From NCBI GenBank assembly GCA_038087875.1, contig CM075994.1:8806001-8870000 (forward strand): a stretch of DNA of 64,000 bases, in the 5' to 3' direction. This DNA comes from Malacoraja senta (Eukaryota). This document shows, one piece after another, positions 1,829 through 42,020 of this stretch. The notes below the pieces were generated by a model. It was not told where the DNA came from, ran no database searches, and saw only the letters and a program-made list of their open reading frames with translations. A program made the translations under genes and the position numbers. Every line of letters begins with the position of its first letter. The stretch's first letter is position 1.

Positions 1829-2134
1829 GCTCCACAGATGCTGCCTCACCCACTGAGTTTCTCCAGCATATTTGTCTACCTTCGATTTTTCCATCCTCTG
1901 CAGTTCCTTCTTAACCAGAAAAAGATGCGCTGGAAACAATGATGCTATATTGCTGGAATATAAATGTTGAGAGAAGCGATTTGTACTGACAGCCTGACCA
2001 CCTAAAGAATTGAATGGCTGGAGAACGTAGAACCAGAAAACAAAACTCCATGGCGATGCACAAAGCAGATGACTTTGGAGAACCATTACCGCAGAAACAA
2101 AGGTTTGCAGATGGAGGTTTATACCAAAGGCGGG

Positions 2135-3435
2135 CACAGAGTGCTGGAGTAACTCAGCGGGTCAGGCAGCATCTGTGGAGAACATGGATAGGTGACGTTT
2201 CACAGAGTGCTGGAGTAACTCAGCGGGTCAGGCAGCATCTGTGGAGAACATGGATAGGTGATGTTTCACAGAGTGCTGGAGTAACTCAGCGGGTCAGGCA
2301 GCATCTGTGGAGAACATGGATAGGTGACGTTTCACAGAGTGCTGGAGTAACTCAGCGGGTCAGGCAGCATCTGTGGAGAACATGGATAGGTGATGTTTCA
2401 CAGAGTGCTGGAGTAACTCAGCGGGTCAGGCAGCATCTGTGGAGAACATGGATAGGTGATGTTTCACAGAGTGCTGGAGTAACTCAGCGGGTCAGGCAGC
2501 ATCTGTGGAGAACATGGATAGGTGACGTTTCACAGAGTGCTGGAGTAACTCAGCGGGTCAGGCAGCATCTGTGGAGAACATGGATAGGTGACGTTTCACA
2601 GAGTGCTGGAGTAACTCAGCGGGTCAGGCAGCATCTGTGGAGAACATGGATAGGTGACGTTTCACAGAGTGCTGGAGTAACTCAGCGGGTCAGGCAGCAT
2701 CTGTGGAGAACATGGATAGGTGACGTTTCACAGAGTGCTGGAGTAACTCAGCGGGTCAGGCAGCATCTGTGGAGAACATGGATAGGTGACGTTTCACAGA
2801 GTGCTGGAGTAACTCAGCGGGTCAGGCAGCATCTGTGGAGAACATGGATAGGTGACGTTTCACAGAGTGGGCAGCATCTGTGGAGAACATGGATAGGTGA
2901 CGTTTCACAGAGTGCTGGAGTAACTCAGCGGGTCAGGCAGCATCTGTGGAGAACATGGATAGGTGACGTTTCACAGAGTGCTGGAGTAACTCAGCGGGTC
3001 AGGCAGCATCTGTGGAGAACATGGATAGGTGACGTTTCACAGAGTGCTGGAGTAACTCAGCGGGTCAGGCAGCATCTGTGGAGAACATGGATAGGTGACG
3101 TTTCACAGAGTGCTGGAGTAACTCAGCGGGTCAGGCAGCATCTGTGGAGAACATGGATAGGTGACGTTTCACAGAGTGCTGGAGTAACTCAGTGGGTCAG
3201 GCAGCATCTGTGGAGGAACATGGATAGGTGACGTTTCACAGAGTGCTGGAGTAACTCAGCGGGTCAGGCAGCATCTGTGGAGAACATGGATAGGTGACGT
3301 TTCACAGAGTGCTTGAGTAACTCAGCGGGTCAGGGCAGCATCTCTGGAGAACATGGATAGGTGACGTTTCACAGAGTGCTGGAGTAACTCAGCGGGTCAG
3401 GCAGCATCTCTGGAGAACATGGATAGGTGACGTTT
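2135..3435. repeat. Tandem array of 20 x 66-bp units derived from the interior of a PLE terminal repeat
   Basis: Unit cacagagtgctggagtaactcagcgggtcaggcagcatctgtggagaacatggataggtgacgttt; one 45-bp unit at 2861 and two 67-bp units. The flanks complete a single PLE repeat. Confidence 0.95.
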
Positions 3436-19476: not shown

Positions 19477-19714
19477 AAAAGCCGGCATCATCCCCCTGTA
19501 TGGTGGAGGGTAGGGCTGGGGAACTGCCTGCTGGGCACACCGCTCCCTGATCTAGGTGGTTGTTCGGCCATCCTCGCAGGCACCTTCGGGTCGGCTGAGG
19601 ATGCTATAGAGCTTGCTGCTTCTTCTGGGCTTAGCTCTTTGGTTTCCCCCTCGATCAAAGAGACACCCGGAGCACCCAAGTTCCGCCCACCACCCTCCCT
19701 CCAGCTGGTCACAT
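19477..19714 (-). CDS. PRRC2A: PRRC2A coding exon 6 (NVTSWREGGGRNLG...GVP[Q]QAVPQPYPPPYRGMMPAF); apparent 1-nt deletion near 19533-19535
   Basis: Acceptor tccttccttgcag|, donor TTT|gtaagt. The start (TSWREGGGR) and end (PPYRGMMPAF) motifs are in different frames; 238 nt where 239 would fit. Confidence 0.88.
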
Positions 19715-19767
19715 CTGCAAGGAAGGAGAAAAGTCAAGATGCTACAGCAACATACAGAAATCGGGCA

Positions 19768-22150: not shown

Positions 22151-22336
<186 letters not shown>

Positions 22337-35333: not shown

Positions 35334-35491
35334 CTTTATCACGGACTGTTCTGCCATCCATCGTAAAATTTGGAGTCTTCCCTAGGACTATAATTTTTCA
35401 TTATTTTTGCAATTCCTCTGCAAGCCGATTAATGCATCGAGACCGAGACAACAAATCGAGCAGGGTACAAGCGGCAAGTAGCAGTCATGCA

Positions 35492-35545
35492 GGAGTGGGA
35501 GATTGCAACCTTCACGTGGTACACCCTGTTTGGACTAATGCAATC
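35492..35545 (+). ncRNA. Predicted HDV-like ribozyme (copy 2; P1 has two mismatches)
   Basis: P1 GGAGTGG/ACACCCT; P2 GATTGCA(35501-35507)/TGCAATC(35539-35545); P3 ACC/GGT; L3 TTCACGT; J4/2 CTAA with C at 35535. Confidence 0.7.
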
Positions 35546-35629
35546 AACCCGACGTACACAAACAAGATCAAATAGAATGAGTTGACCCACAACTTTAGGC
35601 TGTGCACGCCATACGAAAGAAGAATAAGA
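35492..35629 (+). mobile_element. ~140-bp non-autonomous retroposon with HDV-like ribozyme head, copy 2
   Basis: Perfect 10-bp TSD cagtcatgca (35482-35491 / 35630-35639); ends cacgccatacgaaagaagaataaga. Confidence 0.85.
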
Positions 35630-36125
35630 CAGTCATGCACAGATGCCAGACAAGGATCTCTTCCAACAAGAGGGAACCTACTCTTGGCATGAACACGGAC
35701 CAGACTTTAATCATCAATAACCTGGAACATGAGTACCATGACTACAAGAATAAGTCAGGTGATATCCTGCATGCAGGTGGGCGACTCTCCTGACACTCGA
35801 GGAATTTCGACCATCTACAAGGCACAAATCAGATGGAATACTCCACTTGCTTGCAGTGCCAACAAATGTCAAGAAACTCGGCCACATCTAAATCTTAGCA
35901 GCACACCGTCTCAGTGGTGGAGGAATGAGGTGCTCCACTAACCATCTTGAAGCCTTTATTCCCTCCACCATGCACTGACATGCAGTGGAGACAGGGTATC
36001 GTGCTTAAAATGCATTGCCATTATCTTCCTAGGCCATTCAGAGAACAATGGCAACAGACACATGGGAACACCACTACATGCAGGTTCCCCGCCAACTCAT
36101 GGAGCATCGTGATTTGTATAGGTAG

Positions 36126-37194: not shown

Positions 37195-37293
37195 TAAGGA
37201 TCTCAATACAAGAACATTTAGTGCAATAGAAACAAGAATCCTGTGCAGCCTCCTATCCCGAAAGTCCAGGGCGATAATCGTTAAAAGCACTTA

Positions 37294-37471
<178 letters not shown>

Positions 37472-41659: not shown

Positions 41660-42020
<361 letters not shown>

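Follow-up and report, generated by a model that had tools for sequence, protein, structure and literature searches.

A 138-nt retroposon headed by a predicted HDV-like ribozyme and derived from a likely Vingi-clade non-LTR retrotransposon

The described systems closest to the element reported here are short derivatives of longer retrotransposons. In NARTc, RIME and SIDER of trypanosomatids, with Pr77/L1TcRz, a short deletion derivative is headed by the HDV-like ribozyme of its parent, Ingi being a sister clade (PMC4035085, available text). The R2 SIDEs of Drosophila consist of a 5' HDV-like ribozyme and a 3' end, are long-lived and are mobilised in trans (PMC3414825, available text). Internally deleted derivatives of Vingi are also known, namely Vingi-1_EE (Kojima 2011 as cited in the available part of PMC5786205); these two-part elements join both ends of an APE-RT element that has one ORF and lacks RNase H. 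The element described here, inserted twice in a 64,000-nt window (the whole stretch of Malacoraja senta DNA that was analysed), resembles all three in its architecture. It differs from the first group by its vertebrate host, its predicted 54-nt rather than 77-nt head, a parent without RNase H and an (AAG)n tail; from the R2 SIDEs by an APE-type parent, the absence of site specificity and thousands of dispersed copies; and from the Vingi-1_EE derivatives by a head that has a predicted ribozyme fold, 40% of the 138-nt unit.

Regarding the fold of this head, the minimal HDV-like ribozymes drz-Mtgn and theta also lack P4, or nearly so, and have the catalytic C first in J4/2, but they reside in gut phages, often beside tRNAs (PMC10879173, available text), whereas here the fold heads a vertebrate retroposon. 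The mammalian CPEB3 ribozyme (RF00622) has the same topology and L3 sequence as the element head, but is single-copy and intronic. No ribozyme is ascribed to Vingi in the available text of the literature searched (PMC13708176, PMC5786205, PMC4494074 and PMC3894237), a scope that leaves a prior mention possible in patents or Repbase; more specifically, PMC5786205, in its available part, names six other clades and gives Vingi no ribozyme. It is well supported that the element is of a known kind, a ribozyme-headed internally deleted element, whose clade, host group and size are new to the searched literature. A 2011 study by Ruminski reportedly may already cover Vingi-like elements under other names. 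If the prediction holds, Vingi joins the retrotransposon clades that carry a 5' HDV-like ribozyme.

The insertion on which we focus (copy 2) occupies positions 35492-35629 of the + strand, on which all its features are read. It is bracketed by a perfect 10-bp target-site duplication (TSD), the 10-mer CAGTCATGCA being found at both 35482-35491 and 35630-35639, and its first base is G1 of a 54-nt HDV-like ribozyme fold (35492-35545), predicted from a descriptor and from cross-family covariation. The fold comprises (i) P1 (35492-498/35521-527), with two mismatches in this copy; (ii) P2 (35501-507/35539-545); (iii) P3 (35508-510/35518-520) and L3 (35511-517); (iv) a P4 that retains roughly one pair and a loop of 4 nt; (v) J4/2 (35535-538), whose first base, 35535, is the predicted catalytic C. 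The predicted cut lies just 5' of 35492. Downstream of the fold come the continuation of the parent's 5' leader (its positions 55-74, at 35546-35565, identified by BLAST to long copies), a linker at the deletion junction (35566-35581), which differs in other short subfamilies, and the parent's 3' end (35582-35629), recognised by its match to long copies and consisting of the last ORF codons with the stop (35596-35598), a 3' UTR of about 18 nt and the (AAG)n tail. Copy 2, 138 nt long, can therefore be described as derived by internal deletion from a Vingi-like non-LTR retrotransposon of 3 kb, its head and tail matching the long APE-RT copies L122, L154 and L155.

A preliminary description of the window had presented copy 2 as a second, independent insertion, with a perfect 10-bp TSD and a unit starting at G1 of P1, of the element found 33.8 kb away at 1688-1828 on the + strand (copy 1; TSD 1677-1687/1829-1839, 10 of 11 positions alike). 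This was confirmed: the TSDs of copy 2 are identical and the unit aligns end to end, 124 of 140 positions being alike between copy 2 and 1688-1827, first through last base, in a pairwise comparison. The 1.5-kb flanks of the two copies have in common only pieces of a common interspersed repeat, out of register with the insertion; segmental duplication, the reading that flank homology would have favoured, is therefore ruled out as the source of the two window copies. The pairing given in that description also held when checked with descriptor segments: in copy 2, P3 is intact and P1 is broken at two pairs (G3A and C30A), pair 5 of P1 is U-A in copy 2 and U-G in copy 1, and P2, L3 and CUAA are alike in both. 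A relaxed HDV descriptor (custom script, with the noted mismatches allowed) matched exactly two places in the window, copies 1 and 2, and none in 10 shuffled windows; an Rfam scan of the window returned no ribozyme match and no tRNA-, 5S- or 7SL-type match.

Copy 2 is old and decayed. A contig of run X14, from another organism, spans its left flank and first 60 bases, and the insertion is therefore shared and old. The search for an empty orthologous site, suggested earlier, was carried out in four runs; no such site is present among the joints listed for them (37 further joints are unlisted), and the filled site was seen in one organism. Copy 2 probably has no function of its own; taken singly it is ordinary repeat DNA, and its significance lies in the family to which it belongs.

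This family is large. The exact 54-nt head occurs 152 times in the genome, and an 18-nt tail pattern, allowing at most one mismatch, has 9,395 matches (reversed control: 0). Among the first 30 exact tail matches, all on contig 1, 25 correspond to short head-plus-tail copies (23 of which extend to position 1-2), one is a fragment from the 3' part of a long element and no head adjoins the other four, which suggests, by rough extrapolation from 25/30, about 8,000 short copies in the genome. We found a TSD in 76 of 98 perfect-head copies (100 were listed from the 152, and two near-duplicates were removed), with a mode of 11 bp, compared to 1 of 98 in a swapped-flank control; in 68 of these 76 copies the TSD abuts G1. 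The element sequence is present in the data of nine organisms, and in contigs from four other organisms the loose ends cluster at its two boundaries. It also occurs in four RNA or probable-RNA runs, as contigs that are uninformative on strand and ends.

Short subfamilies display several types of head/tail junction. In a very young subfamily, 28 of 29 sampled copies (L354-L383) are identical over 132 nt and have unrelated flanks; copy 1 is a member of it, one base apart (G28T, a private change in P3), and its U-G pair and A8 are traits of this subfamily. Copies 1 and 2 belong to different subfamilies. The preliminary description had seen their defects as complementary and together giving a fully paired consensus. 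The defects are present as stated, but because the two P1 mismatches of copy 2 are private (paired bases are present in other copies) and the U-G pair of copy 1 is a subfamily trait, they reflect chance decay and not covariation. Variation of the head was counted in 48 ungapped heads, sampled regardless of head sequence. Three changes are common, at position 8 (J1/2), at position 32 (where U-A becomes U-G) and at position 45 (the second J4/2 base), and 19 of the 48 heads retain all pairs and catalytic bases. These three changes, which are at the level of subfamilies, all keep the fold, with a chance probability of about 0.07; this is too weak for the subfamily changes by themselves to argue for selection on the fold, and we dropped that argument.

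The head keeps the HDV order, a nested double pseudoknot of P1, P1.1, P2 and P3, according to both descriptor and covariation. P1.1, a single C-G pair, is present in 47 of the 48 heads, and C44, the catalytic C that comes first in J4/2, in 45 of them and in all related families. When the head is compared with family B, L184 and L188, both bases differ in 13 of 17 stem pairs, each of these relatives having 0-2 broken pairs; family E adds eight such double changes and no broken pair. Across these families with different stems, G1, the core of L3 and the C that opens J4/2 are retained, as is the G1-U wobble. Note that pairs were counted from descriptor segments and not from the MAFFT alignment, because MAFFT misaligned P4 and J4/2 across families. 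A strict descriptor matched two of 22 metagenome relatives that have an endonuclease start (L184 and L188), none in antisense and none of 440 shuffles; one further family fits the fold by eye only. Family B (L426 and L431, about 1250-1325 on the element strand) has its own HDV-like fold with a longer P4, one P1 mismatch and a TAAA-type tail. Sampled 5' ends of families C and D, which may be truncated, contained no ribozyme. In Rfam, an intact sister copy scored 16 bits (E 1.3) on HDV-F-prausnitzii, spanning exactly its 54 nt, and L188, L431, L170 and L230 hit no ribozyme family. Altogether, the descriptor and the cross-family covariation support the HDV-like fold put forward earlier, and the element head is predicted to be a self-cleaving HDV-like ribozyme.

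Two observations on relatives may be added. The leader of L170, an intact-looking relative, appears by eye to be HDV-like with a long insertion in L3 (430-560). In the 3' UTR of family C (L433-L438), 11 bases are identical to the J1/2-P2 stretch of the element head, possibly by chance.

Through the variant junctions of the short element we traced long parent copies of 3.0 kb, which by BLAST share with it their first 74 nt and last ~48 nt plus the tail (positions 1-74 and 91-138 of the short element). Pfam searches of parent pieces revealed an endonuclease (APE) and an RT in one broken frame, and the last codons and stop of this ORF sit inside the tail of the short element; neither parent pieces nor P0001 nor family C gave an RNase H family at E 0.1. 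All parent copies seen are broken and about 10% diverged, and no intact parent ORF was found, the longest frame among the 150 scored matches being 442 aa. The nearest proteins are mostly about 1000 aa long, on ~3.3-kb contigs; parent pieces and relatives agree with a single ORF of about 1000 aa containing APE and RT, the parent copies themselves being broken. In an RT tree of 34 rows (P0004, P0117, L233 and L240 were left out, the outgroup was reduced and no L2 row passed the filter), the parent clusters with families B, C and D and metagenome relatives in a clade of 21 rows (support 100/100). In all, four families besides that of the parent lie inside this clade, L184 is a member, and the RTE, CR1 and Rex1 rows lie outside; no named Vingi protein is among the rows, and long branches meet. 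The RTE label rests on DUF6451, and the CR1, Rex1 and L1/Tx1 labels are presumed from sequence motifs.

By eye, the 5' end of L184 is like that of Vingi-2_Gav (available supplement of PMC5786205) at 34 of 36 and 10 of 11 positions, and Vingi elements are described as single-ORF, APE-type and without RNase H (PMC13708176, available text). Since the parent lies in a clade with L184, since the L184 leader resembles Vingi-2_Gav and since the description of Vingi fits, the parent likely belongs to the Vingi clade, as far as a tree containing no named Vingi protein can tell. The element itself is a short internally deleted, that is, two-part non-autonomous, LINE derivative, because it shares the first 74 and last ~48 nt of a parent that groups with Vingi-like and not RTE elements. 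In keeping with this class, it consists of the two ends of one autonomous element, has independent TSD-flanked insertions with a repeat tail and forms its own subfamilies.

Both window copies lie within a gene of the PRRC2 family. On the minus strand, Pfam BAT2_N identifies its first coding exon (41849-41959) and the exon upstream of the intron holding copy 2 (37285-37437). Exon-like frames at 22151-22336, 19491-19733 and 1125-1430, and others beyond the window, are presumably parts of the same gene, judging from their motifs. Given the minus-strand BAT2_N exons and the exon-like frames past both copies, copies 1 and 2 are intronic and antisense. This agrees with the earlier claim that they are antisense to PRRC2A, except that the gene is placed here at the level of the PRRC2 family; a protein-atlas search for its identity gave no match.

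It had further been suggested, with the caveat that two copies are too small a sample, that sense intronic copies with a working ribozyme, by cutting the host pre-mRNA, may be purged, so that intronic copies would be mostly antisense. Both window copies are antisense, and the GC skew on the element strand, uncalibrated as a marker of transcription direction, is slightly negative (mean -0.02, p 0.013; median-based p 0.07). However, TA skew, a proxy for transcription direction that reaches +0.057 on the coding strand of the PRRC2-family gene (unmasked sequence, one gene only), averages +0.001 (SE 0.004) on the element strand of 98 intact-ribozyme copies; beyond 0.03, 24 of these copies are antisense-like (negative) and 23 sense-like (positive), and by medians the split is 46 to 46 (96 loci). 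Neighbouring LINEs even lean the opposite way (52 same, 73 opposite, p 0.07). In a simulation with 40-50% genic copies, an antisense share of at least 0.65 is unlikely (P at most 0.03). Under the assumptions of this simulation a strong antisense bias is unlikely, and because the proxy is indirect a mild bias is possible. Selection against sense-oriented intronic copies is thus unsupported by these counts, and we regard it as rather doubtful. A vertebrate genome would then harbour thousands of near-minimal ribozymes without visible strong counter-selection of either orientation.

How does the element acquire its sharp 5' boundary? Very probably, it is a non-autonomous retrotransposon that combines 74 bases from the start and ~48 from the end of a single-ORF, 3-kb element of likely Vingi type, and its own 5' end folds as an HDV-like ribozyme predicted to cut the RNA out of read-through transcripts. 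A source copy would be transcribed by read-through from a host promoter, and cleavage by the ribozyme 5' of G1 would give the element RNA a defined 5' end. A Vingi protein acting in trans would then bind the 3' end and the (AAG)n tail, and target-primed reverse transcription from this tail into a new site would leave a TSD of ~11 bp. Models of the same type have been shown for the R2 SIDEs, with ribozyme cleavage and mobilisation in trans (PMC3414825, available text), and for L1Tc/NARTc (PMC4035085, available text). As the main alternative, an internal promoter could start transcription at G1, the fold being a non-cutting vestige or its cutting being secondary, as in Pr77 of L1Tc. Pr77 of L1Tc/NARTc is indeed promoter and ribozyme in one (PMC4035085, available text), the near loss of P4 might lower activity, and the absent orientation bias fits weak cleavage in vivo. 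Yet 68 of 76 copies start right at the predicted cut site, the catalytic C, the G1-U wobble and L3 are retained across families whose stems differ, and minimal HDV-like ribozymes devoid of P4 are active in vitro (PMC10879173, available text), which makes a promoter-defined start improbable. As for an RTE-derived two-part element or a tRNA-headed SINE, either is scarcely conceivable: the genome does contain an RTE family (DUF6451) whose (GAA)n tail is similar, and two-part elements are most often RTE-sourced (PMC5786205, available text), but the DUF6451 loci have only the tail repeat in common with the element, the window contains no tRNA call and no SINE-type Rfam match, and the true parent, with an RT outside RTE in the tree, has both head and tail, the head being the LINE's own 5' end.

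If the element is mobilised by ribozyme cleavage and a Vingi protein in trans, a natural 138-nt passenger marks out the ends sufficient for mobilisation; the Vingi-1 of the anole is under development for RNA-only gene insertion with native UTRs (PMC13708176, available text).

The families related to the parent also likely point to the origin of the CPEB3 ribozyme. The element head itself gave no match on RF00622 (cut-off 35 bits); the L184 leader scored 55.6 bits on this model. In a search of the genome with RF00622, 51 places matched and 39 exceeded the cut-off, the latter among 59 scored. Six of the seven matches inspected (L446-L449, L451 and L452) are members of a single young family, family E, which scores 60-64 bits; there, a CPEB3-family ribozyme directly precedes an endonuclease frame akin to those of the Vingi-like families; L450 has a different CPEB3-like head without the endonuclease frame of family E. 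By eye, and leaving the P4 loop aside, the 5' end of the crocodilian Vingi-2_Gav, as given in the available source, agrees with the CPEB3 consensus of Rfam at 52 of 54 positions, when only six bases are invariant in the ribozyme class of CPEB3 (PMC8256844, available text). Vingi traces are present in the human genome (PMC5753468, available text). These similarities suggest that the CPEB3 ribozyme and the Vingi-type 5' ribozymes are likely of common descent, and we infer the direction, from Vingi to CPEB3, because Vingi is the more widely spread. It is probable, on the whole, that Vingi constitutes an unlisted class of HDV-ribozyme carriers, that the present element is the smallest unit of this class to propagate by itself and that the mammalian CPEB3 ribozyme is a domesticated Vingi 5' end. 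Our search found no literature linking CPEB3 with Vingi; the relatives of the element offer a testable source for the CPEB3 ribozyme.

Several observations concern the parent and its kin. P0001 (1019 aa, ENA assembly), the sister of the parent in the tree, shares 72% identity with one decayed parent piece, far above the next matches (about 45%). In L122:1473-2363 and L155:661-981, an in-frame ATG lies at the J4/2-P2 junction of the parent, with a second ATG ~60 nt further on, and the parent ribozyme is readable in frame with the ORF. Among 19 long loci chosen for their ORF start, a choice that biases the sample toward loci retaining a 5' end, the 5' part is in opposite orientation to the 3' part in 12 (11 distinct; L121, L123, L158-L162, L164, L165 and L167-L169), five are collinear and two are single pieces; five of the inverted copies (L121, L123, L162, L164 and L169) are bracketed as a whole by one TSD. 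This is the pattern of twin-priming, which has been called possibly almost exclusive to L1 (PMC2912911, available text). The related families B, C, D and E are younger, with 95-99% identity and frames of up to 986 aa, and the (AAG)n tail is common to C and D; one of these families may have taken over as driver of the very young short subfamily.

Finally, two local features of the region were noted. At the PRRC2 locus, the same 210-aa minus-strand frame occurs twice (L252 and L253), ~13 kb apart and adjoining an assembly gap, which is either a local duplication or an assembly artefact. Positions 2033-3435 of the window are a 66-bp tandem array derived from a common interspersed repeat.
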